64,000 nt of DNA from a bacterium. GTDB lineage: Bacteria; Zhuqueibacterota; QNDG01; JAGLOF01. The DNA lies in the NCBI GenBank assembly GCA_023139105.1, contig JAGLOF010000091.1, positions 10,391-74,390 of the forward strand, given 5' to 3'. Below, piece by piece: positions 2,376-57,064 of this stretch. The notes under the pieces were generated by a model. That model saw only the letters and a program-made list of their open reading frames with translations. It ran no database searches and was not told the DNA's origin. The stretch's first letter is position 1; every line of letters begins with the position of its first letter. Both the position numbers and the translations under genes were made by a program.

Positions 2376-2475
2376 GGGGGCGAATGAGCACCTGGTGGGC
2401 TCCGCGGACTTCAAATCCGTATGTGCCGTGCTGAGAAGTTCGGTAGGTGGGTTCGATTCCCACACGCCCTCGCCA
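2376..2475 (+). tRNA. selC: tRNA-Sec (anticodon TCA)
   Basis: A 100-nt sequence, GGGGGCGA...ACGCCCTC-G-CCA, with these elements: an acceptor helix; an anticodon stem GCGGA/TCCGT with loop CTTCAAA (TCA at 2411-2413); a long variable arm (TGCCG...CGGTA with an internal GCT-GAGA-AGT); a T arm GTGGG-TTCGATT-CCCAC; and an encoded CCA. The length and long extra arm are typical of bacterial selC. Confidence 0.9.
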
Positions 2476-25672: not shown

Positions 25673-26009
25673 GGATGCTCCTATAGCTGATGGTATTTAT
25701 ATTATTCATGATTGGCTTTAATGTAATTGATCAGTTTACGCAAAAAAACAGGGTGGATCAAGTTGTTTTTCGGCGCAAATTTATTTTTAGATGGATAAGT
25801 AAATTCCAGGTCAGATTTCTTGTTCCGACGCACCGGCAAAAGCGACCGGTCTTGTAAGGGAAAGAACTGCCGCTTTGTCCGAATATATTATTATGTGACA
25901 TTTTCTTAACCTGCTAAATCTTTATAAAACAGGCTATATTTCAAATGGAGAAAAATGGCATGCCCATTGCTTGGATAGAGTGCAGTTATCAACTTGGAAT
26001 GGGGAAAAA

Positions 26010-26627
26010 ATGCAGCGCTTCAACATCTACTTCATCATACTGTCCATCGGAATACTCTTTTCCGGAATTACATCTGCAGCAACTCTAAATTGGGAAGCCT
26101 GTGCGGATGCTGATCTTGTTGGTTATCAGATATATTGCGGCAATGAATCCGGTGTATATACTGATACCATTGATGTTGGTAATGTTGTTGAATATTCTCT
26201 TTCAGCCATGGCAGTGGGACATAGTTACTACCTGGCCGTTTCTGCTTATGACCATTGGGGAAATCAAAGTGAACTTTCTACGGAAATTCCATATGAACCA
26301 CAGGTAGCAACGGATGTTGATGATCACTTAAATGCCATGCCTCGTAGTTTTGCTCTTCAACAGAATTATCCCAATCCCTTCAATCCCGAGACTACTATTC
26401 TATATTCTCTTGATGAATCAGGCCCCTTTGAATTGGCTGTATATAATCTTCGCGGTCAGTGTGTGAAAGTTTTATTGGATGATAATGCACCTTATCAGGG
26501 TACAAAGGGAAGTGCCATGTGGGACGGAAGAGATTCTTCCGGTCAGTCTGTGGCTTCCGGTGTATATTTTTACCGTCTGCGTCAGGGTCGGAAAATCAAG
26601 ACCAAACAGATGTCATTAACCAGATAA
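26010..26627 (+). CDS. secreted FN3-like protein with T9SS-type C-terminal sorting domain
   Basis: Signal peptide MQRFNIYFIILSIGILFSGITSAA, an FN3-like block (LVGYQIYCG...YYLAVSAYD), and a C-terminal NYPNPFNPETTILYSL...GVYFYRL sorting-domain signature. Confidence 0.7.
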   Translation: MQRFNIYFIILSIGILFSGITSAATLNWEACADADLVGYQIYCGNESGVYTDTIDVGNVVEYSLSAMAVGHSYYLAVSAYDHWGNQSELSTEIPYEPQVATDVDDHLNAMPRSFALQQNYPNPFNPETTILYSLDESGPFELAVYNLRGQCVKVLLDDNAPYQGTKGSAMWDGRDSSGQSVASGVYFYRLRQGRKIKTKQMSLTR

Positions 26628-27533: not shown

Positions 27534-27682
27534 AGTGGGTGAGAAACTCACCCATTTAGATAATTGATTTTATTGAATTAAGCTTGTTTTTAGCGTAGGT
27601 GGGTGAGAAATTCACCCACCTTTTTTAATCTCTTTAAAAATAAAGACTTAGGTTATGTAGGTGGGTGAGAAATTCACCCACT
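27534..27682 (+). repeat. three copies of a palindromic ~24-nt element in the leader of the RHS gene
   Basis: GTAG(G)TGGGTGAGAAAYTCACCCA occurs at 27535-27554, 27598-27620 and 27660-27681, spaced 63 and 62 nt apart. Each is a 7-9-bp inverted repeat (GGTGGGTGA / TCACCCACC). Copy 2 is followed by TTTTTT. Confidence 0.8.
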
Positions 27683-27866
27683 TTCTCGATTTTACTGTTT
27701 CTGTTTTTAAAAATATAATTACATGATGATGTTTTTAAGCTTTTGATTTTATGGGGGTTATGAATACATGTGTTTTTTATGATATGGGAATGGTATGGTT
27801 GTTGTGTATAGAGGGGGTAATTGGATAAAAGTAATTTCTCCCTAACAACAAGCTGAGAGGTGAAAC

Positions 27867-30800
27867 ATGAAATGCGGATGGTTTTATCGGTTAAAATATT
27901 TAATAGCAGTATGTTTTTTGTTAGTACCAGTTATACTTTCGGCACAGCAAATATTTTCAAACGGTTTTGAATCCGGCACTTTCAGCCCTGAGTGGACAGA
28001 AGGCAGTGCTGGTGTAAAGACTATTATCAATACCGATTCATACACCGGCCAGTACTGTGTGAGTATGGAAAACTATTCAGGCACTAACTGCATATACACC
28101 AGCACTGCTCTATCAGTTACTGCCGGAAATACTTATACTATCAAAGTATGGTATAAATGTGCAGCAGACAGGCAAGCACGAGTTAATTTTTATGATAATT
28201 TAAACTATCGCAGCCATAGTAGTGCTTTCTTTAGCGGTACTGGCACGTGGACGCAGTTGGAGCATTCTTTTGTTGCTGAAACAGACTGCCAGCAGGTGAA
28301 AATTTTTCTTTATGGTCATTACGGCAGTGGGACAACTGCTGTGTTGTATGATGAAATTGAGATTTATGAAAATGATAACAGCACGCCCAGTTTGACGGTC
28401 ACTGATCCCAACGGGGGCGAAGCCTGGACAGCCGGGACAATCCAGACAATATCCTGGGTCAATGAGAATTTTACTGATACAGTGGCACTGGAATATACCA
28501 TTGATGGTGGTCAGTATTGGAATACCATTGTCAGTGGCTCCACCAATGATGGCACCCAGCATTGGCTTGTTCCCGATTCTGCGTCGTCCAACTGCCTGGT
28601 GCGAATTTATGATTCAGCAGATCAATCACCTGCTGATACCAGTGACGCTGTTTTCAGTATTGCTGCTCAACCGGTTTTGGTAGAGATCTTTGCTGATGGA
28701 TTTGAGAGCGGTGCTTTCGGCCCGGTCTGGACAGCGGGCAGTGGTGGTGTAAAGAGTGTCATCAGTACAGATTTTCATGCTGGACAGTACTGTGCCAGTA
28801 TGGATGCTCATACAGCAACCAGCTACATCCATTGTTCTACGCCACTGACTGTGACTCCTGGTAAAACTTACATCATCAGAGGATGGTATAAGTGTAGTGC
28901 CGATCGCCAGGCCCGGGTGAACCTATATGATAACCTGAACTATCGAAGCCACAACAGCCTGATGCTAGATGGCACCGGGGACTGGGAACCGCTGGAACAT
29001 TCATTTATAGCAGAGAATGACTGCCAGCAAGTAGAGGTTTTCCTTTATGGCCACAATGGTACAGGTAGCACACCCATTTTCTATGATGATATCCAAGTCC
29101 TGGAAGATGCCAGTACCATGCCCACCCTGACTGTAGCTATGCCCAATGGCGGTGAGGAGTGGACTGTAAACACCAGCATGAATATTGCCTGGTCCAGTGT
29201 AAATTTTACTGACAATGTGACGCTGGAGTATTCCATTGGTGGTGGCAGTTATTGGAATACCATTGTTAGCAACACCACCAATGATGACAACCATGATTGG
29301 ACTGTACCTGATTCGGTAACTACCAATTGCCTGGTGCGTATCTATGACACTGCAGATCAAAGTCCCTGTGATACCAGCAATGGCTCCTTCAGCATAGTGG
29401 CACAATCAGATTCAATACAGATTTTTTCCAATGGATTTGAAACAGGTACCTTTAGCCCGATCTGGACTGAAGGCAGCAACGGTACCAAGCTTGTGATAAA
29501 TACAGATTATCACACAGGTCAATACTGTGTGAGTATTGATCAATACAGTGGTACCAACTGCGTCTATACCTCTACGCAGCTTGACGTCACTGCGGGCCGG
29601 ACCTATACAGTCAAGGCATGGTATAAGTGTGATACTGGCCGTGATGCCAGGGTCAACTTTTATGACAATTTGAATTACAGAAGCCATTCCAGTGCATACT
29701 TCAATGGCACGGGCGCATGGACTCAGTTGGAACATTCATTTGTTGCCGAGTCTGATTGTCAGCAAGTTGAGTTTTTTCTTTATGGTCATTACGGCACCGG
29801 TACAACACCGGTGTTGTATGATGATGTGGAAATTTATGAAGTGTGGGAAGAAACCGATACAACAGCCTTGGTGCTCTATGCCTATGAACCCTTTGATAGT
29901 CTGAGCACCATTGATGAATTCGTTCGTATTCTGGGTCAAGTCAACAAGCCAGACGTTCCTGTGACGGTTAATGGCACAGCCATGACTGTTGACAGTACAG
30001 GACGATTCCAAGCCCAATTATCGCTTTCTCTGGGAAGCAACACCTTTGTCTTTAATGCCAACAATGGAGAGGCCACCATCAGCAGAGTGGTTTACAGAGA
30101 AGCCGCCGATCTGCCTCCTGATCCTGAAGATGTTGCACCACCGGTTGATAATACAGTTACTACAACAGTGACTAATTCAACCCGATTCCTCTATACGGGC
30201 ATTAATCCTATACAGACAGGCGTTGATACTTCGCAGATGGACCCTGTCAGGGCAGCTGTTGTGCGCGGTAAAGTAGTTACTGTTACCGGAGACCCCCTTC
30301 ATGGTGCCATTATGACCATCAAAGATTATCCTGAGTTTGGGCAGACCAAATCCAGAGAGGACGGCTGGTTTGATATGGCTGTGAATGGTGGTGACGATCT
30401 GACGGTGCATTATTCCCGGCAGGGGTATTTAGATGTACAACGCCGCTTCCATGTGGACTGGCAGGATTGGGCCGTTATGGATAGCGTTGCCATGATTCAA
30501 CTTGATACCCGAGTGACGGTGGTTGATTTTAGTGATACCATTCAGGTTGCCCGGGGCAATGTCGTGACAGATGATGATGGTGCGCGCCAGGCAACTATGA
30601 TTTTTAAGCAGGGTACGCAGGCGGAAATGGTGATGCCAGATGGCAGCAGGCAGGCTTTGGATGAATTGCACATCCGTGCCACTGAATATACGGTGGGCGA
30701 TATTGGTGTCGCGGCCATGCCCGCTATGCTGCCGCCCGAAAGCGGATACACCTACTGTGTTGAATTGACATGCGATGAAGCACTGAAAGCCGGTGCTACA

Positions 30801-33800
30801 GGGGTCGTATTTGACCAGCCTGTGCCGTTTTATGTGGAGAATTTTCTTGATTTTCCCGTGGGGTGCCGGGTGCCTGTGGGCTATTATGATAAAGAGAAGA
30901 AACAGTGGATCGCATTACCTGATGGATGGAATCTTGAAATCGTCAGTGTGAGTAACGGGGTTGCAAATATTGATGTTACCGGAGATCATCTCGCAGATAC
31001 TCCTGATACGTTGGCGATAGTCGGAATCGATTTGAATGAACGAAAATCGATTGCCGATCTGTATGATCCGGGGCAGTCTTTGTGGCGGGTGGAATTGAAT
31101 CATTTCTCCCCCATCGATTTGAACTTGCCCATTACTCGGTATGAGGAGAGAGTACCCAGTATAATTTTAGATGAGGCAAAATTGATCAGTGATGAAGACG
31201 AGTGTGAAGGGAGAGGTTCGATTATTAAGATTCAGAAACAAGTTCTTAAAGAGGTGGTGCCGGTGTCCGGTACAGGAATGGCGCTCAATTACATGAGCAA
31301 TAGAACACCGGATTACGCTTCGGCTCTCAATATCAAGCTGATTTCCGGTGAAGTTCCGCCTGAAGTGCTGAAGATCATGTTGAAGATTTCAGTGGCTGGC
31401 CGAGTCTTTGAGTATCAGTACCAGCCGCTGGCCAACCTGACACATGTGTTCATTTGGGACCGAAAAGACGCCTATGGACGCCTTATTCGGGGGGAGATGC
31501 CGGTCAACATCTCCATAGGATATGAGCAGTTCCAGCGCTATCTCACACGGAGGAATTTTGATCTGGGCACTTCGTTCGGTAATTTGGTCGTGCTAAGTTC
31601 TACTCTGGATGAGGGATCAAGCCAGATGGCATACACAATGATTGATACGACGCGTCAGCCGGTCATATCATACCGGAATTATGTGAGATATATCGGCGGT
31701 TATCAGCCTCCGGTACAGGATTTTGGCGGATGGACTCTGACTCCTCATCACTATTACAATCCCATCAGTAAAGTGGTACATTCGGGAAGTGGAGATAATA
31801 TTAATTCTTCGTTCAGTAAGAACAATTCTATCAATACGGAAATCGATCTCGATGATATTCAGTTGGTTGGCGGTTTATCTGGCTTGCCCAGAAATATCTG
31901 TCTTGGTCCCTATGGCAATTGGATCGCTCTGGTTGAATCAAGGCTGTATTTGTTATATAATAATTTCGCTACTTCGATCCATGATCAAATGGTTGGGGAT
32001 ATGTGTGCCGGGGCAGATGGGACGATCTTTGCGGTTGAGACCAGTAACCATCGAGTGATCAAGATTGACTCGGTAGGGACTGTTACGGCCATCGCCGGGA
32101 CTGGGGTGAGTGGTTATTCAGGTGATGGCGGGGCTGCGGTGAATAGTCAATTGAGCTGTCCTACAAACATTGCTGTCAACAAAGATGGAGCTATTTATAT
32201 CTCTGATTTTGGCAATCACTGTATACGCCGCATTGGTACAGAGGGCAACATTGAAACCATTGCAGGAACAGGGGAAATTGGATTTAGCGGTGATAGTGGT
32301 TATGCTCTGGATGCCAAAATTTTCGCTGGAGATCTGGCTGTGGGACCAGATGGCAGTCTGTTTATCGCCGATCCCATAACTTGTCGAATTCGAAGGATAA
32401 CTCCTGATGGCATCATTGATACCTATGCGGGCAATGGCGAGGCAGGATATGGCGCGAATGGCAGCATGGCTGCATCTGCGGAACTGTTCTTTCCGCTGTT
32501 TATTAATGTTGACGAGCGGGGCAATCTTTATATCTCAGATTTTGGAAACCATTGCATACGAAGAGTCGATGTCAATGGCGTGCTTAGCACAGTTGCCGGT
32601 TGCGATGGAGTATTCGATCCCAGACTGCTGTATGAAGAGTTGCTGGGTTTTCCCATACCGGCGGGAATGGACCTGTCGCTGACAGATATCTATTCTTATA
32701 CTGATCCGATTTCTGATATACTTCCCTTTTTGTTGTTTGAGCTTTATGAATTGGACATGAATTATTGCCCCGGCTTCAGGGGGGAGGGTATGAACCCTTT
32801 AAGAGCTCATTTATGTGCCGGAGGATTGGTCGATGCACCTGATGGTAGTCTTTACTTTGCCGATCCCCTGAATAGGCGCATCCGTCAAATCCAGTCGGCC
32901 TACCCTGTATTCAGCAATTCCGATTACAATGTTTCATCCCCTGATGGTGGTGAACTGTATGTCTTTGATCAGATGGGAACACACCTAAAGACTCTGGATG
33001 GGCTGACCGGCTCTGTAAAATATACATTCAACTATACGGACGGTCTGCTGAGTGAAATACTCGATCAGGACAGCCTGGTCACCCGGATTGAGCGCACTGA
33101 GTCCGGAGATGTGAGAATGATTTTGTCTCCCTTCGGCCATCGTACGATCTGCTCCCTCGATTCCAGTGGCTACCTGGTTTCGGTAACCAATCCCGGGATA
33201 GAGACTGTGCGTTTTGAATATACCAATGGGATGTTGATGACTGAAGAGACAGACCCCTGGGGAGGAGTCCATTGCTTCACTTACAATAATGAAGGAAAAC
33301 TGATCCGCGATGAAGACCCTGCCGGAGGATGGAAATCAATCACCAAAACCCGAACTCAATCAGGATATTCCATCGAGTATAAAACGGCCGAGGGTAGTAT
33401 CAAATCCTATGCGATTGAGGTGCAGGATGATCAAACGATTCGTATGACCAATGCCAATGCCACTGGAATAGCCACAGTGTCTCTGAAAAACCCCGATGGC
33501 TCGCAGTCGATCACTTATCCTGATGGTGTTAACATGTTCAAGTTGATGAAGCCCGATCCCCGCTACGGCATGCAGGCACCGTTGATTGATACATTGAGGA
33601 TCACCCTGCCTTCCGGGCTCCAGTCTGTCATGAGCCAGTCGCGAACCATTGACGTGATGTCCGGACTGGCCATCACCCAGATGACGGATACGTCAATTGT
33701 TAACAACAAGATCTCTGTCACCCAGTTTGACGGGAACCAGCATTTCTGGCGCACAATCTCTCCTGAAGGCAGACAGGCCTACGCATTCATCGATGAAAAG

Positions 33801-36068
33801 GGCCGCACTGTTCTGGACTCCATCCCCGGCCTGCACGGTGTACATTACACTTACAACAATGAAGGTTTCTTAACTGCCACCAGGCAGGCTGACAGGATCA
33901 CATCGTTCGCCTATGACACCCTGGGCCAGCTGGAAGCTGTAACCGATCCCATAGGCCGCACCAGCCATATGGCCTACGATTCTGTTGGTAGATTAACTCA
34001 ACAAACGCTGCCTGACGGCAGACAGATTGCCTACACCTACGACGCCAACGGTAATTTAACTTCACTCACACCCCCGGGAAGACCGGCTCATCTCTTCTCG
34101 CACACAGCCGTTAATCAAACAAGTCTCTATCAACCGCCTGAACTGCCAGATAGTCTCGGAACGACCTTCTACGAGTATAACCTTGACCGTCAGATCACCC
34201 GTACTATTCTGCCGGGTGGCGATACAATCCTTGTTAATTATGGGTATGAAGGTTGTGGCTGCGGGAGTATCGGGTCTCTGGCCCGCATCGGCTTTGACCG
34301 GGGATTTCAGTACTTTAAGTATGATTCAACCACCGGTCACTTACGCCATATTATTTCGCCAGAGCAGGATACACTGACCTATGCCTATGACGGCCGCCTG
34401 CCCTTATCTGTTAGCTGGACAGGCAGGATTAACGGTAGTGTCGGAGTGGATTATAATAACGATTTCAAAGTGACAGCTCAACGGGTGAATAATGGATACC
34501 AAGTCGGATTCGTCTATGATGCTGACGGGCTGCTAACTGCTGCAGGTGATCTGACTCTGGCCTATGACCCGGTTAATGGTATGCCTTTGGGAACACAGCT
34601 TGGCAACGTGACTACTGAAAATACGTTTACTGGGTATGGTGAATTAGCTCGTTTTGAGTCGAAATATAATCTTGACAATTTATTAACATTTGATTATTCA
34701 CTTGACTCTTTGGGCAGGATTAATCATATTAATGAAGTAACATTAAATGATACCAATGCTTACGTCTACGGTTATGATTTAACAGGCAGATTGGTCAACG
34801 TTTCAAGAAACGACACAGTTGTTTCTGCATACACCTACGATGACAACGGCAACCGGCTTTCTCACACCACACCTGATGGTACGGTTTACGGTGTTTACGA
34901 CGACCAGGATCGGCTTCTTTCTTATGGTGATGCTTCTTACGGCTACACTCCCAACGGTTCTTTGACTTACAAGGCCACTGGCACGGATACCACTTGGTAT
35001 CACTATGACTTGCTGGGTAACCTGATCTCTGTTGCCCTGCCAAATAGTGATTTTATTGAGTACATGATCGACGGGCAGAACCGGCGGATTGGGAAGCTGG
35101 TTAATGGGGTATTTAAGAAAGGGTGGTTGTATCAAAATCAACTTAGTCCTGTTGCTGAGTTGGATAGTCTTGGGAACATCGCTACACGTTTCGTTTATGG
35201 AACAAGAAGTAACGTGCCCAATTATATGTTAAAAGATGATCAGGTTTACAGAATAATATCTGATCATTTGGGCTCTGTCCGTCTGGTTGTTAACACAGGT
35301 ACCGGAGCAATTTTCCAGCAAATCGATTATGATGAGTTTGGAAATGTTCTCTGTAATGCCAATGAAGGTTTTCAACCCTTTGGTTATGCCGGTGGATTAA
35401 ATGATGAGCATACTCAGCTCGTTCGGTTTGGGGCAAGGGATTATGATGCCGGTGTTGGGCGGTGGATGAGTAAAGAACCTGCCAAGTTTGCTGGAGGATT
35501 AAACTTTTATTCTTATGTTAGTAACGATCCGATTAATTATAACGATCCAACAGGTCTTTATGCACTCAGAGTTGACTATGAGAACAAAAGGTTGTTCGCT
35601 GTTATCACAAATAGGGGCGAAACGCTCTGGAATCTTGCAAAAAATGTGAGTGGTAATGGTTCAAGGTGGTCTGAATTAGGAGTTTGCGAAAGTAATGCAA
35701 AAACCATACAAATTGGGGATGAATTTAATGTGACGGGACTGTTTCCTAGTAATGTCATAGCTAACATATTTTCTCAACATTCAAACGAATCAATAACTGC
35801 AGGATCTCAAGCAAATCCTACTCAAGGTTTAGCAAAAGCATATGAATATTTGGGGTATGCAGAAGTTGGATTACTGGGAGCCGGTTTTATAGGTGCAGGC
35901 AAACTTGCATTACTAGGAGGGACTGTAGATGGTTTGGTTATAGTCGGTGGTGGAGCAGCTGGATTGATCGGTGGAGGTGTATTTGTTGTTGTTGGTGTTG
36001 GCTTGGTCCTTATAAGTGCTGATTTACTTGAGGGTGGAGGGCTTAATCTATTTGGTTTAATTGAATAG
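27867..36068 (+). CDS. giant secreted teneurin-like RHS/YD-repeat polymorphic toxin (CBM-like x3, TTR-like, NHL, YD shell, RHS core, LysM-like + glycine-zipper C-terminal domain)
   Basis: RBS GAGAGGTGA and signal peptide ...VPVILSAQQ. Domains in order: 3 x GFE.G..W CBM4_9-like plus PNGGE.W Ig-like modules; a CarboxypepD_reg/TTR-like block (VVRGKVVTVTGDPLHGA); NHL repeats (GDGGAA..S.L..P..IAV...G.IYISD..NH.IRRI) at about 32.0-32.9 kb; many YD repeats (Y.YD..G.L) at about 33.0-35.1 kb; and an RHS core ending [14 protein letters not shown]...DPINYNDPTGL at 35544-35558. Confidence 0.95.
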   Translation: MKCGWFYRLKYLIAVCFLLVPVILSAQQIFSNGFESGTFSPEWTEGSAGVKTIINTDSYTGQYCVSMENYSGTNCIYTSTALSVTAGNTYTIKVWYKCAADRQARVNFYDNLNYRSHSSAFFSGTGTWTQLEHSFVAETDCQQVKIFLYGHYGSGTTAVLYDEIEIYENDNSTPSLTVTDPNGGEAWTAGTIQTISWVNENFTDTVALEYTIDGGQYWNTIVSGSTNDGTQHWLVPDSASSNCLVRIYDSADQSPADTSDAVFSIAAQPVLVEIFADGFESGAFGPVWTAGSGGVKSVISTDFHAGQYCASMDAHTATSYIHCSTPLTVTPGKTYIIRGWYKCSADRQARVNLYDNLNYRSHNSLMLDGTGDWEPLEHSFIAENDCQQVEVFLYGHNGTGSTPIFYDDIQVLEDASTMPTLTVAMPNGGEEWTVNTSMNIAWSSVNFTDNVTLEYSIGGGSYWNTIVSNTTNDDNHDWTVPDSVTTNCLVRIYDTADQSPCDTSNGSFSIVAQSDSIQIFSNGFETGTFSPIWTEGSNGTKLVINTDYHTGQYCVSIDQYSGTNCVYTSTQLDVTAGRTYTVKAWYKCDTGRDARVNFYDNLNYRSHSSAYFNGTGAWTQLEHSFVAESDCQQVEFFLYGHYGTGTTPVLYDDVEIYEVWEETDTTALVLYAYEPFDSLSTIDEFVRILGQVNKPDVPVTVNGTAMTVDSTGRFQAQLSLSLGSNTFVFNANNGEATISRVVYREAADLPPDPEDVAPPVDNTVTTTVTNSTRFLYTGINPIQTGVDTSQMDPVRAAVVRGKVVTVTGDPLHGAIMTIKDYPEFGQTKSREDGWFDMAVNGGDDLTVHYSRQGYLDVQRRFHVDWQDWAVMDSVAMIQLDTRVTVVDFSDTIQVARGNVVTDDDGARQATMIFKQGTQAEMVMPDGSRQALDELHIRATEYTVGDIGVAAMPAMLPPESGYTYCVELTCDEALKAGATGVVFDQPVPFYVENFLDFPVGCRVPVGYYDKEKKQWIALPDGWNLEIVSVSNGVANIDVTGDHLADTPDTLAIVGIDLNERKSIADLYDPGQSLWRVELNHFSPIDLNLPITRYEERVPSIILDEAKLISDEDECEGRGSIIKIQKQVLKEVVPVSGTGMALNYMSNRTPDYASALNIKLISGEVPPEVLKIMLKISVAGRVFEYQYQPLANLTHVFIWDRKDAYGRLIRGEMPVNISIGYEQFQRYLTRRNFDLGTSFGNLVVLSSTLDEGSSQMAYTMIDTTRQPVISYRNYVRYIGGYQPPVQDFGGWTLTPHHYYNPISKVVHSGSGDNINSSFSKNNSINTEIDLDDIQLVGGLSGLPRNICLGPYGNWIALVESRLYLLYNNFATSIHDQMVGDMCAGADGTIFAVETSNHRVIKIDSVGTVTAIAGTGVSGYSGDGGAAVNSQLSCPTNIAVNKDGAIYISDFGNHCIRRIGTEGNIETIAGTGEIGFSGDSGYALDAKIFAGDLAVGPDGSLFIADPITCRIRRITPDGIIDTYAGNGEAGYGANGSMAASAELFFPLFINVDERGNLYISDFGNHCIRRVDVNGVLSTVAGCDGVFDPRLLYEELLGFPIPAGMDLSLTDIYSYTDPISDILPFLLFELYELDMNYCPGFRGEGMNPLRAHLCAGGLVDAPDGSLYFADPLNRRIRQIQSAYPVFSNSDYNVSSPDGGELYVFDQMGTHLKTLDGLTGSVKYTFNYTDGLLSEILDQDSLVTRIERTESGDVRMILSPFGHRTICSLDSSGYLVSVTNPGIETVRFEYTNGMLMTEETDPWGGVHCFTYNNEGKLIRDEDPAGGWKSITKTRTQSGYSIEYKTAEGSIKSYAIEVQDDQTIRMTNANATGIATVSLKNPDGSQSITYPDGVNMFKLMKPDPRYGMQAPLIDTLRITLPSGLQSVMSQSRTIDVMSGLAITQMTDTSIVNNKISVTQFDGNQHFWRTISPEGRQAYAFIDEKGRTVLDSIPGLHGVHYTYNNEGFLTATRQADRITSFAYDTLGQLEAVTDPIGRTSHMAYDSVGRLTQQTLPDGRQIAYTYDANGNLTSLTPPGRPAHLFSHTAVNQTSLYQPPELPDSLGTTFYEYNLDRQITRTILPGGDTILVNYGYEGCGCGSIGSLARIGFDRGFQYFKYDSTTGHLRHIISPEQDTLTYAYDGRLPLSVSWTGRINGSVGVDYNNDFKVTAQRVNNGYQVGFVYDADGLLTAAGDLTLAYDPVNGMPLGTQLGNVTTENTFTGYGELARFESKYNLDNLLTFDYSLDSLGRINHINEVTLNDTNAYVYGYDLTGRLVNVSRNDTVVSAYTYDDNGNRLSHTTPDGTVYGVYDDQDRLLSYGDASYGYTPNGSLTYKATGTDTTWYHYDLLGNLISVALPNSDFIEYMIDGQNRRIGKLVNGVFKKGWLYQNQLSPVAELDSLGNIATRFVYGTRSNVPNYMLKDDQVYRIISDHLGSVRLVVNTGTGAIFQQIDYDEFGNVLCNANEGFQPFGYAGGLNDEHTQLVRFGARDYDAGVGRWMSKEPAKFAGGLNFYSYVSNDPINYNDPTGLYALRVDYENKRLFAVITNRGETLWNLAKNVSGNGSRWSELGVCESNAKTIQIGDEFNVTGLFPSNVIANIFSQHSNESITAGSQANPTQGLAKAYEYLGYAEVGLLGAGFIGAGKLALLGGTVDGLVIVGGGAAGLIGGGVFVVVGVGLVLISADLLEGGGLNLFGLIE
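27951..29850 (+). repeat. in-frame tandem repeat, period exactly 735 bp (2.6 copies) inside the RHS gene
   Basis: Unit starts are IFSNGFESG at 27951, IFADGFESG at 28686 and IFSNGFETG at 29421. Each unit is a CBM-like plus Ig-like module. The third copy holds only the CBM-like half. Confidence 0.85.
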
Positions 36069-36093: not shown

Positions 36094-36456
36094 ATGATTT
36101 ATTTTGGCTTTGGATTACTAATAATCACGCAAGTTGTTGGAGTAATTTTGATTAAATCCAGCAAAATTAAACTAACTAAAACTATATCTACTCATAATAA
36201 AAGGAAGGCTCTTCAATTGAATGCTTTTTCAAAAAAGTATATTAGGCTTCTAGGTGCCTTGTTGTTGCTGTTACCATTTGTTTTGGCGATTACTCTTGCA
36301 CAAGTTGTTGATAAAAATACAAAGCATATGTTAATCATCTTTTTCTTTTTTATTGTTTTCATTTTAGTGGATTTTATTGTATACTATTTAATTATTGAAG
36401 GATTAACTAGAGAAAAGATTGATAATGATGAGCTAAATAGGTCATGCAATTTGTAA
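36094..36456 (+). CDS. putative cognate immunity protein (3-TM membrane protein)
   Basis: Starts 25 nt after the RHS stop, preceded by GGAG. It has three hydrophobic helices (FGFGLLIITQVVGVILI, LLGALLLLLPFVLAITLAQVV, MLIIFFFFIVFILVDFIVYYLII). The position is the canonical immunity slot. Confidence 0.6.
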   Translation: MIYFGFGLLIITQVVGVILIKSSKIKLTKTISTHNKRKALQLNAFSKKYIRLLGALLLLLPFVLAITLAQVVDKNTKHMLIIFFFFIVFILVDFIVYYLIIEGLTREKIDNDELNRSCNL

Positions 36457-36503: not shown

Positions 36504-36709
36504 ACATCTTGGCTTCTAATGGTCAAACACCGGGTATGCCCTCATGCTGCCCGGTGTTCTTTAAAAAATAATCCATTGCCTCTTGTCATATATGGCAATT
36601 GACCTAAAACTAATTAATAATAAAATAAACAGCATATCTAAGATGTCGGCTACACTCCCAACGGTACTCAGGTTTCTTATTTGACGGCCCAAACCGGCGC
36701 ATCGGCACG
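36504..36709 (+). repeat. type-1 cassette junction, copy A (copy B at 38136-38340)
   Basis: About 200 bp are conserved between 36504-36709 and 38136-38340. The block includes the hairpin AACACCGGG-N15-CCCGGTGTT (36526-36558 / 38157-38189) and an RHS stub (GYTPNGTQV.Y). Confidence 0.8.
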
Positions 36710-37498
36710 TTGGTAAATGGTGTATTCAAAAAAGGCTGGCTCTACCAGGATCAGCTCAACCCCGTGGCAGAACTGGACAGCCTGGGTAATATCTCAGCAC
36801 GGTTTGTATACGGTTCAAAAGGGCATGTGCCTGATTACATGATCAAGAATGGTGTAACCTATCGTTATATCACAGACCATCTCGGTTCAGTACGGTTGGT
36901 CGTCAACTCTGTTTCTGGTCTTGTTGTTCAGCAAATTGCCTATGATGAGTTCGGTTATGTGCTGGTTAATACCAATGCTGAGTTTCAACCATTTGGTTAT
37001 GCTGGTGGATTGTTGGATGCGCATACTAAACTGGTTCGGTTTGGTGCCAGGGATTATGATGCTGGCGTTGGCAGGTGGACGGCTAAGGATCCGATTGGAT
37101 TTGAAGGTGGGGATGTAAATCTGTTTTCCTACTGTATCGTTGATCCGTTAAACAATATTGATTCGAATGGGATGTTGTTTTGGGGTTTGATAAATGCAGG
37201 TGAACAATGGGGGCAGGAGGCAGCTGAGTATTATGCGAGAGTAGTTGCCGATCCTTGTGCTTCTGATGCAGCAAAGGCTGGAGCCTGGGTAGGTGGTTTG
37301 TTTGCTTCTTTGTGGACACCAAGTACAAGTGATATTACGCTAACCGTTTTGACTACTGCTTATGCGTGGAGAGTCATTGGCCCATATTCAACGAGAGGTT
37401 TGCCACGATGGTTGCAGCGTATTCGAAAATATATTCGATTTGATCGACCACATCATGATAAACCAGGGTATCATTGGGATGGGAATTGGTTTAAATAA
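36710..37498 (+). CDS. orphan RHS C-terminal fragment 1 (core tail + unknown toxin domain)
   Basis: The first 155 aa are homologous to main-gene residues around [13 protein letters not shown]...[14 protein letters not shown]...DPLNNIDSNGM. A unique 107-aa tail (37175-37495) follows. There is no ATG start, and the upstream stub is frameshifted by a 4-nt deletion relative to copy B. Confidence 0.75.
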   Translation: MVNGVFKKGWLYQDQLNPVAELDSLGNISARFVYGSKGHVPDYMIKNGVTYRYITDHLGSVRLVVNSVSGLVVQQIAYDEFGYVLVNTNAEFQPFGYAGGLLDAHTKLVRFGARDYDAGVGRWTAKDPIGFEGGDVNLFSYCIVDPLNNIDSNGMLFWGLINAGEQWGQEAAEYYARVVADPCASDAAKAGAWVGGLFASLWTPSTSDITLTVLTTAYAWRVIGPYSTRGLPRWLQRIRKYIRFDRPHHDKPGYHWDGNWFK

Positions 37499-37514: not shown

Positions 37515-38084
37515 ATGGATAAAATACAAAGCACGATTACTAATTTGGTGACAAAAGTATATCAAACGTCTAGCTACCCTACAGCTGAAATGATTATAAC
37601 TGATGAAGTGATGATTCGTAATATCGTAAGTGGTATTAATGAAAAGAGCCGATATATTGCTGAATATAAAAAATGTTCGGATTGTTTCTATTGTTACCAG
37701 ATTGCTATATCTGTTGATTTACCAATAATTCCGAATGCCCATGAGAAAGAGAGGATGAGGGACTGGATAAAGAAATACGGTCAAAATTATTGGCAGATGT
37801 ACATAGCCATCAGTAAGCTTGGGAAGCTTGCTTTTTACTACTGGACAAAATATGGTTTAACACTATTCAAATTTAAAACTGTAAAACATAATTATTATCC
37901 GCCTAACAATGATTATAAAAAAGTACAGTCGCTAATTGATTCTATTTTAAGTAATTTTGATATCGAAGTCCTTGAAGCAAAATTAGTGACAGAAGAATAT
38001 AAAGTTAAATATGATGGTAAAATTATAGGATATGATCCAAAACCCAATTTAGTAAAATTGTTGTTTACTGAAGAACTTCATTGA
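37515..38084 (+). CDS. putative immunity protein for orphan toxin 1 (cytoplasmic)
   Basis: ATG 16 nt after the toxin stop, with AGGAGAAGG as RBS. 189 aa, no signal peptide or TM. No recognised family. Confidence 0.55.
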   Translation: MDKIQSTITNLVTKVYQTSSYPTAEMIITDEVMIRNIVSGINEKSRYIAEYKKCSDCFYCYQIAISVDLPIIPNAHEKERMRDWIKKYGQNYWQMYIAISKLGKLAFYYWTKYGLTLFKFKTVKHNYYPPNNDYKKVQSLIDSILSNFDIEVLEAKLVTEEYKVKYDGKIIGYDPKPNLVKLLFTEELH

Positions 38085-38469
38085 TGTTTTTAGCCAGGGT
38101 GCGTTGATAAAGCCACCGCTTTATAAAGGCTCCGGACATCTTGTTTTCAATGATCAAACACCGGGTATGTCCTCATGCTGCCCGGTGTTCTTTAAAAACA
38201 ATCCATTGCCTCTGTCTTATATGGCAATTGATTTAAAACCAATTAACACAATCGACTAATGAAATAAATAGCATATTTAAGATGCAGGCTACACCCCCAA
38301 CGGCACTCAGGTTACTTATTTAATTGATGCTCAGAACCGGCGCATCGGCAAACTAGTAAATGGTGTATTCAAAAAAGGCTGGCTCTATCAGGATCAGCTC
38401 AACCCAGTTGCCGAACTTGACAGTCTGGGCAACATCACCGCTCGTTTTGTATACGGATCTAAAGGCCAT

Positions 38470-39231
38470 GTGCCCGATTACATGATCAAGGATGGTGTGC
38501 GGTATCGTTTTGTCACAGACCATTTGGGTTCGGTGCGGCTGGTGCTCAACGCCACCACCGGTGCCGTTGCGCAACGTTTGGATTATGATGCTTTTGGCCA
38601 AGTACTGCTCAATAGCAATCCTGACTTTCAGCCGTTTGGGTATGCGGGTTGCCTCAGCGATACTCACACGGGGTTGATGCGCTTTGGTGCCAGGGATTAT
38701 GATGCTGGTGTTGGGCGGTGGACGGCTAAAGAGCCGCTAGGATTTAATGGCAGTAATAATTTCTACTCTTACTGTCATAATGATCCATTGAATCTGGTTG
38801 ATCCAGGTGGTGACCTTGCGTTTATCCCCATATTGCTGGGTGCCTGGGCTATTGCTGAATTTGGTTTGTCTGTGTGGGATATATTTGATGCTGGTAGGAC
38901 TTTACTTGATCCTTGTGCTAGTTGGGGTGATAAAGGTATCACAACATTGGGGGCTTTTGCAGGTTTAATATTACCTGGTGGTGGCTGGGATGATTTGGCA
39001 AAAGGGGGAGTGAAATTAACAAGGACAATGCTATCTAAGTCACATGTAATTGCGAAAGGAAGTAAAATAAGACAAGTAAATTCCCTTGTTAGTAAGTACG
39101 GTGGTAAGTCTAGTAAGTGGGTGAAAAAAAGTAGTGAAGCAATGTTTGTTAATGGTCGGATGATAGAAGTTCATTGGTATGAACACCCAGGTATTGGAAG
39201 AGTAATGGAAAAATTGAAACCTTTGGAGTGA
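38470..39231 (+). CDS. orphan RHS C-terminal fragment 2 (core tail + unknown toxin domain)
   Basis: The frame is open and RHS-homologous from 38281 ([37 protein letters not shown]...) with no ATG. The first possible start is GTG 38470. The core ends DPLNLVDPGGD, followed by a unique 138-aa tail (38815-39228). Confidence 0.75.
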   Translation: MPDYMIKDGVRYRFVTDHLGSVRLVLNATTGAVAQRLDYDAFGQVLLNSNPDFQPFGYAGCLSDTHTGLMRFGARDYDAGVGRWTAKEPLGFNGSNNFYSYCHNDPLNLVDPGGDLAFIPILLGAWAIAEFGLSVWDIFDAGRTLLDPCASWGDKGITTLGAFAGLILPGGGWDDLAKGGVKLTRTMLSKSHVIAKGSKIRQVNSLVSKYGGKSSKWVKKSSEAMFVNGRMIEVHWYEHPGIGRVMEKLKPLE

Positions 39232-39234
39232 ACG

Positions 39235-39567
39235 ATGAAAGTTATACTAAAGCCAAAGTATGCAGATAAAAAGGAAGTAAATGATCTTAGTGCATCGGTT
39301 TTATATTTGGTTATTGGTCTAGAAGCGGATGATTATCGATTGATAAATGATAATCGGCGGCCATATTTGTATGATCATAAATTATTTGATTTAATTGATG
39401 AAAAGGAACCAAGTAACTGGTGTAATGAATATGGGGATGATGGTGAGAGGTACGCTTATCCTCCAGAACTAAATAAATCAGGTTTTTTTGAAGATTATTT
39501 TGATGGAAATAAAAAAGCATTAAAAATTTTTAATGATTATTTGAAACAGATAAAACTTTTAGTTTGA
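39235..39567 (+). CDS. putative immunity protein for orphan toxin 2 (small, acidic, cytoplasmic)
   Basis: ATG 3 nt after the toxin stop. 110 aa, D/E/Y-rich, no signal peptide. Confidence 0.55.
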   Translation: MKVILKPKYADKKEVNDLSASVLYLVIGLEADDYRLINDNRRPYLYDHKLFDLIDEKEPSNWCNEYGDDGERYAYPPELNKSGFFEDYFDGNKKALKIFNDYLKQIKLLV

Positions 39568-39790: not shown

Positions 39791-40041
39791 TGTGATGTTT
39801 TGTTGTAGGTAATTGGGTGTATTACAATTTATTGTTGTAATGCTAGGATAGGCCTCACACTGCAGAGCTGTGTGGATGTGTTTTCCGCAATGACACCATC
39901 AACGGTTAGTTACGCTAATTATAGCAATGGCAACTGCGTTAGTTGTACTAATCAGAATGGTACGGTTACCGAGTCTACGATGACCAGGATCGGCTGCTTT
40001 CTTATGGTAATGCTTCTTACGGCTACACTCCTAACGGTTCT

Positions 40042-41040
40042 TTGACGTATAAAGCAGTTGGCACAGACACAACTTTTTACCATTACGACCTGCTTGGTAA
40101 CCTGATCAGCGTTGCCCTGCCAAATAGCGATTTCATAGAGTACATGATTGACGGGCAGAACCGCCGCATCGGTACGTTGGTTAACGGTATTTTTAAAAAA
40201 GGCTGGCTTTACCAGGATCAGCTCAATCCCGTGGCAGAACTTGACAGCCTTGGCAATATTTCTACCCGGTTTGTGTACGGATCAAAAGGGCATGTGCCGG
40301 ATTACATGGTTAAAGATGGCATAACTTATCGCTATATCACCGATCATCTCGGTTCTGTGAGATTGGTAATTAACACCACCACTGGTGCCGTTGCTCAGTG
40401 CATGAAATATGATGAGTTCGGTAATGTACTGGTGAATACCAATCCTGACTTCCAGCCATTTGGGTATGCGGGTGGCCTCACTGATACTCACACAAGCTTG
40501 GTGCGTTTTGGTGCCAGGGATTATGATGCCGGTGTAGGGCGGTGGACGGCTAAGGATCCGATTGGGTTTGCAAGTCAATCAGGAAATTTATATAGTTATG
40601 TAATGTCGGATCCAATGAATTGGATTGATCCAAGTGGTTTGTCAAAACTTATATTTGACCGTAGTAGAGGAAAACTCGAAATATGGCAAGATAATTGGGT
40701 TGGCCCACCGTTGATTTTTGCCGCAGGAAATTTTACGGTAAATCAAGATGGGGATCCTTTGCAACCGGAGAGTTTTGGTCCAACTCCAAATGGGCTTTTC
40801 GATCTTGGAGAAATGATAGAAACAGGTTTGGATCCATGCTCTTCTTTTGGATCAGGTTTTTTTAGAATTAATCTTCCAAGTAAAGAATCTGGTGAACATC
40901 GTACGGGTGTTGGTTTGCATGCAGGCAGGAGAGATTCAGGTGGTGTAAAGCATCGTACGCTTGGTTGTATACGAACAACTGAAGAGGCTTTAGCAGTTCT
41001 TAGGAATGATCTGCCAACTCAAATATTAATTCAGGAGTAA
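40042..41040 (+). CDS. orphan RHS C-terminal fragment 3 with Tlde1/DUF2778-like L,D-transpeptidase-fold toxin domain
   Basis: RHS homology is recognisable from about 39880 (degenerate, with stops), and the frame is open from 39952. The core ends [11 protein letters not shown]. The 132-aa tail (40642-41037) carries [11 protein letters not shown]...GFFRINLP...[24 protein letters not shown], i.e. H-x15-C with T-x-G-C as in YkuD/Tlde1 catalytic sites. Confidence 0.75.
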
Positions 41041-41679
41041 ATGATGAAATTATATTTGGTTATTATTTGTATAATAACAGGGATGGTTTTTCAAGAAGTG
41101 GAATCTTCTACTTTTCAGGATAATGTTGTTCTGAAGAATATTTTCACTGATACTTCAGTAGATACTACTCAATATACAAGAATGCTAAATAAAAGCACAG
41201 TTTACACACAAAATGTGAAAAATTTCTTGGTTGAATATTATTTATTTATGAGAGACCCTGGAAAAGAAAGAATTAAGTATATTAATGCGTTTCCAGAAGA
41301 TTATGATAGTATTATGCACTTAGTATATGAAAAAATTGAGCTAGAAAGATTTTCGCCTAGTTTTTTATTTTCTTTTAAGGTAATAGGAGATGCTGCGATA
41401 TCTGGAGACTGTAATGCAGCAAGGAAGGTTGTAAGAGTATATGTGAATTCTGATGGTGTTGTTGCAGATCTTATGTTCGGATATCTAGTAACTCTTTTTA
41501 AAACCAATTTGGATTTAATATTGAATACAATTTGTGAATTAAATGAGAGGGATACTAAAAAAATCTGCTTATCTCTGAAATACCTCAATGTAGAGGACAA
41601 AGATATTATTAGAAAGAATGTACTAAAACATACAGAGTCTTGGTGTCATAATTTGGATGCTTTAATGGGAAGTCTATAA
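41041..41679 (+). CDS. putative periplasmic immunity protein for orphan toxin 3
   Basis: The ATG immediately follows the toxin TAA. Signal peptide MMKLYLVIICIITGMVFQEVES. 212 aa. Confidence 0.6.
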   Translation: MMKLYLVIICIITGMVFQEVESSTFQDNVVLKNIFTDTSVDTTQYTRMLNKSTVYTQNVKNFLVEYYLFMRDPGKERIKYINAFPEDYDSIMHLVYEKIELERFSPSFLFSFKVIGDAAISGDCNAARKVVRVYVNSDGVVADLMFGYLVTLFKTNLDLILNTICELNERDTKKICLSLKYLNVEDKDIIRKNVLKHTESWCHNLDALMGSL

Positions 41680-41819: not shown

Positions 41820-41851
41820 CAGGCATGCCATTCGGCATGTCTGGTTTTTTT
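41820..41851 (+). terminator. intrinsic terminator closing cassette 3
   Basis: CAGGCATGCC-ATTC-GGCATGTCTG is a 10-bp stem (one G-U pair) followed by GTTTTTTT. It is similar in sequence to the terminator at 39759. Confidence 0.75.
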
Positions 41852-42004
41852 GTGCGCCCGGCCGGTCACGCTCACTAGGTGGTGGGAGTCCACTATACGC
41901 CCGACAAGGGGAAGTATTAGCCGAGCGGCAAGGTTATCATCGTGAGTTGATTGCTGAAGGAAGGTGAAGGCAAAGCACTGGTCTGACGAACAGAAATCGT
42001 ATAT

Positions 42005-43222
42005 GAGGCCCTGGGCAGACTGGGATTTGTAATCGACCCTATCGGCCGCAGCAGCCACATGGCCTACGATTCTGTCGGTAGAGTAACTCAACAAACGCTG
42101 CCTGATGGCAGACAGATCGCCTACACCTACGATGCCAATGGCAATTTAACTTCACTCACACCCCCGGGAAGACCGGCTCATCTCTTCTCGCATACCGCCG
42201 TTAATCAAACAAGTCTCTATCAACCGCCTGAACTGCCTGACAGTCTCGGAACGACCTTCTACGAATATAACCTTGACCGTCAGATCACCCGTACTATTCT
42301 GCCGGGTGGCGATACAATCCTTGTTAATTATAGGTATGAAGGTTGTGGCTGCGGCAGTATCGGTTCAGTTGCACGTATCGGATTTGACCGTGGTTTTCAG
42401 TATTTCAAGTATGATACAACCACTGGCCATTTAAAATACATCATTTCTGCTGATAACGATTCCCTTGCTTTTGCCTATGATGGCCGTTTGCCCTTGTCTG
42501 TTGCCTGGACAGGGATGATAAACGGCAATGTGTCGGTAACCTATAATAATGATTTCCGGGTGACCTCCCAGAGTGTGAATAACGGGAATACGGTTGGATT
42601 CGCCTATGATGATGACGGTTTACTCACGGCTGCTGGTGATCTCTCTCTGGCCTATGATCCGGTTAATGGTATGCCTTTGGGAACACAGCTTGGTAACGTA
42701 AGTACTGAAAATACGTTTACCGGGTATGGAGAATTGGCCCGTTTTGAGTCTAAATATAAATTTGATAATTTATTCACAACTGATTATTCACTTGACTCTC
42801 TCGGTCGAATTAATCATATTAATGAAGTTACATTAAACGATACCAATGCTTACGCCTACGGTTATGATTTAACAGGCAGACTAATCAACGTTTCAAGAAA
42901 CGACACGGTTGTTTCTGCATACACCTACGATGACAACGGCAACCGGCTTTCTCACACTACACTTGACGGTACGGTTTACGGAGTTTATGACAATCAGGAT
43001 CGGCTTCTTTCTTATGGTGATGCTTTTTACGGCTACACTCCTAACGGTTCTTTGACTTACAAAGCAGTTGCCTCAGACACAACTTTTTATCAGTATGATC
43101 TGCTGGCCAATCTGATCAGTGTTAATCTGCCAGATGGTACGGTTGTATCATATATGATCGACGGGCAGAACCGGCGCATCGGTACGTTGGTTAACGGTAA
43201 TTTCAAGAAAGGCTGGCAGTAA
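42005..43222 (+). pseudogene. truncated duplicate of the RHS YD-shell segment (no N-terminus, no core end, no toxin)
   Basis: Colinear with main-gene 33913-35130, with only scattered substitutions over the first ~450 bp compared by eye. The ORF 42059..43222 ends ...[16 protein letters not shown], exactly at the KKGW junction where the orphan cassettes begin. Confidence 0.8.
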
Positions 43223-52170: not shown

Positions 52171-52179
52171 ATTTATCCT

Positions 52180-54986: not shown

Positions 54987-55024
54987 TTTTCTTATGCCCT
55001 TCTTTTAGTTCTTGTTTGTTCTGT

Positions 55025-56905: not shown

Positions 56906-57064
56906 TACCTTGTTGTTATGAGCCAATTTTAATATTTTGGTATTTTGGTATTTTTGTTGTTTGTTGTTTGTATTTTGGCACTTGTATTTTGGCACTTGGT
57001 ATTTGGTACTTTGGTATTTGTAATTTTGGTACTTGGTACTTGGATCTCTATAGTTGTGCTCTTG

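Follow-up and report, generated by a model that had tools for sequence, protein, structure and literature searches.

The TLP gene and its domain organization

We analysed a stretch of 64,000 nucleotides from contig JAGLOF010000091.1 of assembly GCA_023139105.1 (hereafter the window; all coordinates refer to it), whose source was reduced sediment (PRJNA707313, sample RS_7, SRR13892605) at Site-F, a cold seep in the South China Sea. On its plus strand, at 27867..36068, lies an intact open reading frame (ORF) of 8.2 kb with an ATG start, encoding 2733 amino acids (aa), whose product we assign to the bacterial teneurin-like protein (TLP) family. The assignment rests on the order of its teneurin-specific Pfam domains, the best match and the Foldseek ranking of the TLP of Bacillus inaquosorum (BiTLP), the RHS-associated core model TIGR03696, and two cleavage motifs. 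Downstream of the gene follow a putative immunity gene and an array of three orphan cassettes. An initial annotation of the window, made without database searches, had proposed the order TTR-like domain, NHL propeller, YD shell, RHS core and toxin, and the teneurin-specific Pfam models pass in that very order. The architecture it described was right, but it left out the TIP and FN-plug domains, the G1117|S1118 cleavage motif, the immunity gene, the three orphan cassettes and a displaced YD fragment.

The conserved part of the protein opens with a teneurin-type TTR domain (aa 793-876; 30243..30494, plus strand), matched by PF25020 (TTR_TEN1-4) at 84.2 bits against a cut-off of 27 and modelled by AlphaFold2 (AF2) with a pLDDT of about 80. 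The generic CarboxypepD_reg model, by which the initial annotation had named this domain, stays below its cut-off (18.1 versus 32.3 bits). There follow the TIP (teneurin insertion protein) domain of about 220 residues (aa ~877-1100; 30495..31166, plus strand), located by HMMER alignment to BiTLP and modelled by AF2 with a pLDDT of 72-92, and the FN-plug (aa ~1101-1311; 31167..31799, plus strand), in which PF24329 (FN-plug_TEN1-4) reaches 33.4 bits at aa 1154-1220 (cut-off 27.8). TTR, TIP and FN-plug form a block of 557 residues, aa 755-1311, that HMMER aligns as a single continuous domain to BiTLP 359-917. Next comes the NHL beta-propeller (aa ~1320-1664; 31824..32858, plus strand), recognized by TEN_NHL (PF25021, 72.3 bits) and NHL (PF01436, 53 bits); its blades have a pLDDT of 72-90 in the AF2 model, and Foldseek matches them to NHL domains. 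One blade at aa ~1583-1640 (32613-32786) is degenerate, with low AF2 confidence, and six homologues keep the canonical GDGG...DGS.Y..D pattern there. An insertion of ~60 aa in the NHL region was considered and rejected, since the alignment shows the degenerate blade instead.

The YD-repeat shell (aa 1665-2564; 32859..35558, plus strand) matches TEN_YD-shell (PF25023) at 117.3 bits over aa 1685-2537 (cut-off 50) and RHS_repeat at 81 bits, and its aa 1665-2567 align to BiTLP 1244-2147. It is closed by the RHS-associated core, where TIGR03696 (Rhs_assc_core) scores 72.4 bits at aa 2488-2564 (cut-off 32.5). RHS_repeat, TIGR03696, NHL and CBM_4_9 (see below) were all models named beforehand by the initial annotation, and each of them matches.

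Both autoproteolysis motifs can be located. In the FN-plug the putative N-terminal motif C1113-EGR-G1117|S1118 (31203-31220) aligns with C719...G723|S724 of BiTLP, and G[S/C] is retained at the cleavage position in seven of eight homologues; at the level of the motif, the protein thus has the G|S in the FN-plug loop, and the cysteine nearby, that mark the N-terminal cleavage site of TLPs. At the other end of the shell, the DPxGL site pointed out in the initial annotation is indeed present as PINYNDPTGL|Y2565, that is P2555-INYN-D2560-PTG-L2564|Y2565, with E2537/D2560 as predicted catalytic pair and the arginine in ...GARDYD.... The first catalytic acid is Glu2537 (KEPAK, 35475-35477), where all 30 other TLPs captured by the pattern have Asp; Glu also occupies this position in the second orphan cassette and in the metagenomic relative P0246. 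It is the one deviation in a protein that otherwise displays every sequence-level trait of the TLP family.

Ahead of this conserved part, the N-terminus reads MKCGWFYRLKYLIAVCFLLVPVILSA|QQ, with K2, R8 and K10 before a hydrophobic stretch. By inspection and a hydropathy segment at residues 5-32, we read it as a Sec type-I signal peptide (aa 1-26; 27867..27944, plus strand) with predicted cleavage at LSA|QQ. No canonical lipobox was found in it, as IAVC carries Val at position -1. Pfam matches and internal repeats define the region that follows (27948..30059, plus strand) as an N-terminal adhesin or targeting region, composed of three CBM4_9-like modules (aa 28-168, 272-412 and 518-657; CBM_4_9, PF02018, 77.6 bits, cut-off 25.9), Ig-like modules of ~90 aa after the first two (aa 175-266 and 419-512), and a Glucodextran_B-type Ig module, found by Pfam, after the third (aa 673-731). 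Pairwise identity among the CBM modules is 59-78%. The classical signal peptide followed by three CBM4_9-like and Ig-like modules, as originally described, is therefore borne out by hydropathy, Pfam and repeat identity. Elsewhere, these N-terminal modules find their matches in giant proteins of Ignavibacteria and Bacteroidota that are sorted by the type IX secretion system (T9SS).

Relation to known teneurin-like proteins

A sequence search of the PDB gave the BiTLP entries 9PT5 and 9IFO as best matches (E=0, 1149 bits), extending over TTR-TIP-FN-plug, NHL and the whole shell. At lower levels came the metazoan teneurins (~1e-88), Rhs proteins from type VI secretion systems (T6SS; ~1e-25) and TcC proteins (~1e-6). 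The initial annotation had regarded the absence of an NHL or TTR fold from the predicted structure as decisive against its reading; in the AF2 model of aa 755-1700, Foldseek finds TLP, teneurin and NHL folds, with 9IFO at rank 1 and teneurins next, and since this model is moderate (pLDDT 62, pTM 0.38) the ranking is informative and the TM-scores are not. The parallel with the teneurin ectodomain that had been drawn from domain order is, by both searches, one of real homology.

The architecture itself is already known. FN-plugged teneurin-like YD proteins were noted across bacteria by Jackson et al. in 2018 (PMC5851990), and the family was characterised and structurally solved in 2026 with the cryo-EM structure of BiTLP (9IFO, 9PT5; Raoelijaona et al., PMC13018210). 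The latter study defines TLPs by the FN-plug/NHL/YD-shell superfold, with a TIP domain in 96% of them, and reports that their N-terminal adhesion modules vary and that they carry Sec signal peptides; that the chain is autoproteolytically cut twice, in the FN-plug (G723|S724) and behind the DPxG motif of the RHS core; that the caged C-terminal tip, ~15 kDa in size, was toxic in several instances; and that an immunity gene lies directly downstream. The hydrophobic tip of BiTLP kills E. coli only if exported to the periplasm, the cells becoming propidium-permeable, and in the cryo-EM structure C719 is disulfide-bonded to the caged tip (PMC13018210). The interest of TLPs is twofold: they are bacterial ancestors of teneurins, the receptors by which animal nervous systems are wired, and they form a newly recognised class of polymorphic toxins.

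Our protein shares with BiTLP and other TLPs the order TTR-TIP-FN-plug-NHL-YD-shell-RHS core, both autoproteolysis motifs, the Sec signal peptide, variable N-terminal adhesin modules, a small polymorphic toxin with an adjacent downstream immunity gene, and the lack of a linked delivery machine. It differs from described TLPs in its host, a diderm from cold-seep sediment with T9SS-type signals that lies outside the six phyla listed in PMC13018210, and in its stalk, as CBM4_9 or Kre9-like Ig modules occur in none of the 80 other TLP loci sampled. In addition, its signal peptide is of type I, whereas Gram-negative (Myxococcota) TLPs were reported with a lipoprotein-type signal (PMC13018210), and it stands apart from other TLPs by the Glu at the first catalytic position, the LysM-like and glycine-zipper tip, and the array of three orphan cassettes. 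Compared to the metazoan teneurins (Ten1-4, Ten-m) it has no cytoplasmic domain, transmembrane (TM) helix or EGF repeats, and it possesses a TIP domain, an immunity gene and orphan genes. The C-terminus of teneurins is threaded outside the shell as ABD/Tox-GHH (PMC13018210, PMC5851990); in our protein neither EGF nor Tox-GHH yields a Pfam match, and the autoprotease motif is kept, so that cleavage and caging of the tip are predicted. We regard the additions specific to this locus (stalk, orphan array, tip/immunity pair, Glu variant and host lineage) as ordinary modular variation of a polymorphic toxin. With this locus the TLP family gains an uncultured diderm host from cold-seep sediment that bears T9SS signals; current understanding is not overturned.

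For a family-wide view we scanned 185,579 species-representative genomes with a three-sequence alignment of the TTR-TIP-FN-plug region, and 80 loci were retrieved; the source genome of the window is not among the GTDB species representatives. The survey amounted to 118 TLP relatives with identities of up to 47%, and by record title it adds Nitrospirota, Gemmatimonadota, Ignavibacteria, Anaerolineaceae, Chloroflexota, Planctomycetota and Bdellovibrionales to the six phyla published. With a crude pattern, a lipobox-like motif was seen in 6 of 74 complete TLP N-termini.

The putative toxin tip and its immunity gene

The C-terminal tip (aa 2565-2733, 169 aa; 35559..36065, plus strand) was delimited by phmmer, hydropathy and the GC content of third codon positions (GC3), which is 0.24 in the tip and 0.49 in the YD shell. 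It has no Pfam match. We discern in it a LysM-like module (~2578-2625) and, beyond a linker, a hydrophobic segment of the glycine-zipper kind (~2657-2733), the last ~75 residues being rich in Gly, Ala, Val and Leu with a hydropathy peak of 2.5. An exhaustive phmmer search with the tip against 1.84 billion representatives returned 29 matches, three of which cover the whole tip: P0245 (60% identity), P0246 (46%) and P0247 (36%). In the remaining 26, repeats of the matched proteins align to tip residues ~14-60, and the four of them that were scanned are all LysM proteins. In P0246 this type of tip is fused to a TEN_YD-shell end, and P0245 resides within another orphan array.

Only 26 nucleotides past the TLP stop starts the putative immunity gene 1 (36094..36456, plus strand; GC 0.275), which encodes 120 aa with three TM segments predicted from hydropathy. 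All three full-length tip relatives are likewise followed by a gene of 117-129 aa with three hydrophobic segments, and the three-TM protein of the window is homologous to the partner of one relative and, via that one, to the partner of a second. Depolarising glycine-zipper toxins accompanied by small membrane immunity proteins occur in contact-dependent inhibition (CDI), T6SS and type VII secretion (T7SS) systems (PMC11630599, PMC12744356). With the CdiA-CT ionophores (PMC11630599) and the T7SS protein EsxX (PMC12744356) our pair has in common a small Gly-rich, hydrophobic C-terminal toxin and a small multi-TM immunity protein, although no sequence similarity was detected and the tip here adds a LysM-like module and is borne by a TLP. 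From the make-up of the tip, its three-TM partner, the behaviour of the BiTLP tip, and the glycine-zipper toxins of these other systems, we infer that the tip would act in the periplasm as a membrane-permeabilising toxin, with the three-TM protein as its membrane immunity protein. The locus contributes a rare putative toxin/immunity pair.

A similar tip was seen on an 8.7-kb metagenomic contig (JGI 3300033146, locus L085), where an orphan array lies behind a large gene. One orphan there is a TEN_YD-shell end joined to Ntox44; behind this orphan come a truncated copy of the tip, with LysM-like module and glycine zipper, and the three-TM partner.

The orphan cassette array

Beyond immunity gene 1, three orphan cassettes and their putative immunity genes are lined up on the plus strand. 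Cassette 1 (36674..37498, ORF from 36710) joins the end of the RHS core (main aa 2399-2538) to an unrelated 106-aa tip, and is followed by putative immunity gene 2 (37515..38084, 189 aa), which has no family match and is designated by its position and its GC of 0.307. Cassette 2 (38296..39231, ORF from 38470) carries the RHS core end (main aa 2392-2538) and a 137-aa tip with a hydrophobic start, with putative immunity gene 3 (39235..39567, 110 aa; position and GC 0.291) behind it. Cassette 3 (39967..41040, ORF from 40042) has a longer YD/RHS core end (main aa 2341-2538) and a YkuD-like tip (putative L,D-transpeptidase fold, as in Tlde1-like toxins), in which YkuD (PF03734) falls narrowly short of its cut-off (22.2 versus 23.4 bits, E=2e-4) and the motif H...TLGCIR, with the candidate catalytic His and Cys, is found. 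Putative immunity gene 4 (41041..41679, 212 aa), recognized by hydropathy and GC, has an N-terminal hydrophobic signal or anchor; its product is therefore probably periplasmic, which fits a periplasmic target. The array ends with a displaced YD-shell fragment (41990..43222, plus strand) that is 85% identical to main aa 2012-2420 and carries neither core end nor tip.

All three orphan ORFs match TIGR03696 and the end of the teneurin YD-shell model. In each of them the homology to the main gene, in DNA as well as in protein, ends at aa 2538, before the cleavage site, and the tips beyond are unrelated. The tips and the four putative immunity genes are AT-rich (GC 0.27-0.31, GC3 0.18-0.27), compared to a GC3 of 0.42-0.50 in the TLP body and 0.33-0.43 in the background genes. 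A GC-rich core with an AT-rich tip is the classic pattern of Rhs elements, and the layout of orphan cassettes is likewise known from Rhs and CdiA loci. Extra core ends downstream are a recurrent feature of TLP loci, seen in about 9 of the 57 others that show a core match; the three-cassette array of the window is the longest among the TLP loci examined, one other (L067) having up to three partial extra core matches. The word "orphan" is absent from the main text of the TLP paper (PMC13018210). The array points to orphan cassettes as a means by which TLP genes may diversify, a mechanism already known for Rhs and CdiA.

The main tip (C2607, 35685-35687) and the tips of orphans 1 and 2 each contain one cysteine, and that of orphan 3 has one besides its catalytic Cys; P0247, the only tip relative not found on a YD protein, has none. 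Pairing of the tip cysteine with C1113 (31203-31205) was considered as evidence and set aside: it holds here, but is too likely by chance to count.

At the 5' end of the displaced YD fragment, the Rfam model group-II-D1D4-3 matches at 41936-42116 (plus strand; 50.9 bits, gathering score 32, E=2e-8), strongly only over the first ~75 nucleotides, and no reverse transcriptase ORF or D5/D6 domain was found near it. It resembles the remnant of an intron and sits precisely on the fragment's 5' junction. A terminator-like hairpin (41820-41843) lies ~90 nucleotides before it.

Proposed mode of action

We consider it quite likely that the locus encodes a Sec-exported polymorphic toxin of the TLP family, with a caged tip, an immunity gene and a reserve of orphan cassettes. 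The CBM4_9/Ig stalk would bind a glycan or a cell, and the YD shell, plugged by the FN-plug, would enclose the tip; the chain would be cut at G1117|S1118 and at L2564|Y2565, both by homology with BiTLP. The freed tip would stay caged, possibly tethered by a disulfide between C1113 and C2607. Its LysM-like module could dock it on peptidoglycan, and its glycine-zipper segment could insert into the inner membrane from the periplasmic side and permeabilise it, the three-TM protein (36094-36456) protecting the producer. The orphan cassettes would serve as a reserve, from which the tip may be replaced by homologous recombination through the shared core sequence, and may also provide extra immunity, as in Rhs and CdiA loci.

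Several points weigh against this proposal. The signal peptide was called by eye and hydropathy, without a predictor, and depends on the choice of start codon, since the NCBI gene model begins 17 codons downstream (a version of 2716 aa) and its start would remove the n-region. Having Glu2537 in place of Asp could make C-terminal cleavage slower, or abolish it. As to the tip, the Pfam LysM model gives no direct match even at E<=5, the AF2 model has a pLDDT of 41 and was not used, and the similarity scores of the immunity proteins come from a four-sequence comparison of hydrophobic proteins.

Delivery and alternative readings

How a TLP of roughly 300 kDa gets across the outer membrane of its producer and into a target is a gap that the field itself has published and is not specific to this locus: the authors of PMC13018210 call TLP delivery unexplained. 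The delivery question put forward by the initial annotation is hence a real one, but it had already been published for the family, and it is not easier to test here, since the source is a metagenome contig. The scan took in every ORF of the window from 100 aa upwards, the precomputed calls for all genes within 10 kb, and 9 kb beyond the window start (73 kb in total), so that ORFs below 100 aa were covered up to 10 kb from the TLP gene. In these 73 kb no PAAR, prePAAR, VgrG, Hcp, Tss, Eag, TcA, TpsB, LXG or WXG100 gene was found, in agreement with the initial annotation, which had seen no dedicated secretion partner such as PAAR/VgrG or TpsB. The TLP itself has no match to PF18962 (Por_Secre_tail), PF13585, TIGR04183, PAAR, VgrG, Hcp, TpsB, LXG or WXG100, and none to the TPS or FHA domains that two-partner secretion and CDI would call for.

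Nor did clustering of the flanking ORFs in the 80 loci of the survey reveal a conserved TLP partner; it returned pieces of orphans, response regulators of a generic kind and, at six of the loci, genes of the type II secretion system (T2SS). Genuine GspG, GspF or GspH genes lie 1-5 kb from the TLP gene in 6 of the 80 loci (L013, L026, L036, L052, L060 and L067), three of them in Gemmatimonadota, which may share one ancestral arrangement; the GspG matches (PF08334) reach 77-149 bits. The window contains no T2SS genes. As a tentative lead, this adjacency hints at a possible outer-membrane export route of diderm TLPs, and it is the one family-level lead on the TLP delivery problem. One could picture a diderm TLP that is brought by Sec to the periplasm and leaves by the T2SS (or by lysis or vesicles), docks with its CBM/Ig modules on a glycan of the target cell, and kills with a glycine-zipper tip that binds peptidoglycan and may still be linked to the N-terminal fragment by a disulfide. 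The Gsp adjacency in those six loci being the sole positive hint for the T2SS part, we rate this full sequence of events as rather unlikely.

Three CBM4_9 and three Ig modules could also belong to a surface adhesin or carbohydrate-binding protein of cell-cell recognition whose tip is not a weapon. The NCBI label of the protein, "carbohydrate binding domain-containing protein", points the same way; teneurins act so in animals, and a signalling role is left open in PMC13018210. The intact autoprotease motif, a tip of caged size, a membrane immunity partner that co-varies with it, the AT-richness of this pair and the orphan array are, however, hallmarks of a polymorphic toxin, and the TLP tips that were tested are toxic (PMC13018210). 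A mainly adhesive function is in our opinion improbable.

The neighbourhood brings up a further route. At a distance of 1.2 kb upstream of the TLP gene, and ahead of a stand-alone response regulator, there is a gene (25971-26627, plus strand) whose small product (205-218 aa) bears a sorting domain of T9SS type A (TIGR04183, 35 bits, cut-off 23), and the TLP might be exported unconventionally by the T9SS, for instance bound to this protein or by virtue of its N-terminal modules, which are of the kind found in T9SS cargo. T9SS-type sorting domains do exist in this lineage. The TLP, however, has no C-terminal sorting domain and the shell would surround its C-terminus, no relative of the upstream gene stands beside any of the 80 other TLP genes, and no precedent is known for such a route, which leaves it very unlikely. 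Preferring the Sec-exported TLP toxin, we also attach hardly any probability to a T6SS-delivered Rhs effector with its PAAR/VgrG partners elsewhere in the genome. The YD shell, RHS core, polymorphic tip, immunity gene and orphans would suit one, and Rhs structures do match the shell at ~1e-25. T6SS Rhs effectors such as RhsA and Tse5 also cage an autoproteolytically released tip in a YD shell, have AT-rich tip/immunity modules, and are followed by orphan cassettes of core end, tip and immunity gene; Tse5 even bears a glycine-zipper membrane toxin. They are, however, loaded in the cytoplasm through PAAR/VgrG and have no signal peptide, TTR, TIP, FN-plug or NHL domain, whereas the Sec signal peptide of our protein is incompatible with cytoplasmic loading onto VgrG, PAAR, prePAAR, VgrG, Hcp and Eag genes are absent from the 73 kb, an FN-plug seals the shell, as it does in TLPs and teneurins, and BiTLP outscores the T6SS Rhs proteins by over 1000 bits. 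The least credible reading is that of an ABC toxin complex in need of a TcA injector, with our protein as its BC-type subunit, for although the RHS core matches TccC and YenC2 and a neighbouring FG-GAP protein has a faint TcdB_toxin_midN match, the window has no TcA gene, the TLP has no SpvB or TcdB-mid domain and is a single-chain shell with FN-plug and NHL domain, and TcC matches it only over the last ~100 residues at 1e-6.

Genomic neighbourhood and host

Upstream of the TLP gene are encoded a hybrid kinase, an MCP, a nuclease/phosphatase-fold protein, a PAP2 protein, the T9SS-sorted small protein and the response regulator. In the gap of 827 bp directly before the TLP gene stand two near-identical terminator-like hairpins (AGGTGGGTGAGAAATTCACCCAC[C/T]T; 27597-27621 and 27659-27683, plus strand), 62 nucleotides apart. 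Right behind them a consensus scan places a promoter-like site TTTACT-17-TATAAT (27691..27719, plus strand), 148 bp upstream of the ATG; it is a weak candidate, such sites being no more numerous in this region than expected from shuffled sequence.

On the minus strand, 15 kb downstream of the TLP gene, two paralogous Omp85 genes with one POTRA domain each (50872-53406), the only Omp85 genes seen, are BamA-like and not of the TpsB (ShlB) type, which has two POTRA domains. They belong to a cluster (50872-56995) that also encodes the FG-GAP repeat protein, which has an equally faint XAC2610-like match besides that to TcdB_toxin_midN, and a TPR/thioredoxin-like protein; no sign of a link between this cluster and the TLP was seen.

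The window further encodes ExbD and a TonB-dependent receptor with a CarboxypepD_reg domain. The TonB-dependent receptor, ExbD and Omp85 genes indicate a diderm host, and with TIGR04183 on the upstream small protein they support the diderm, T9SS-bearing lineage assumed at the outset. The T9SS tails, the SusC-like TonB receptor and the N-terminal modules, of a type found in the Fibrobacteres-Chlorobi-Bacteroidetes (FCB) group, tentatively point to a host within that group. YchF is 87% and 78% identical to its two closest relatives and only ~61% to Desulfobacterales, the nearest ones with a name. At 2376-2475 (plus strand) both ARAGORN and Rfam find a tRNA-Sec gene, and genes of the benzoyl-CoA reductase/HGD-D type are located just upstream of the window start (L082); the combination would fit an anaerobic sediment organism that uses selenocysteine.

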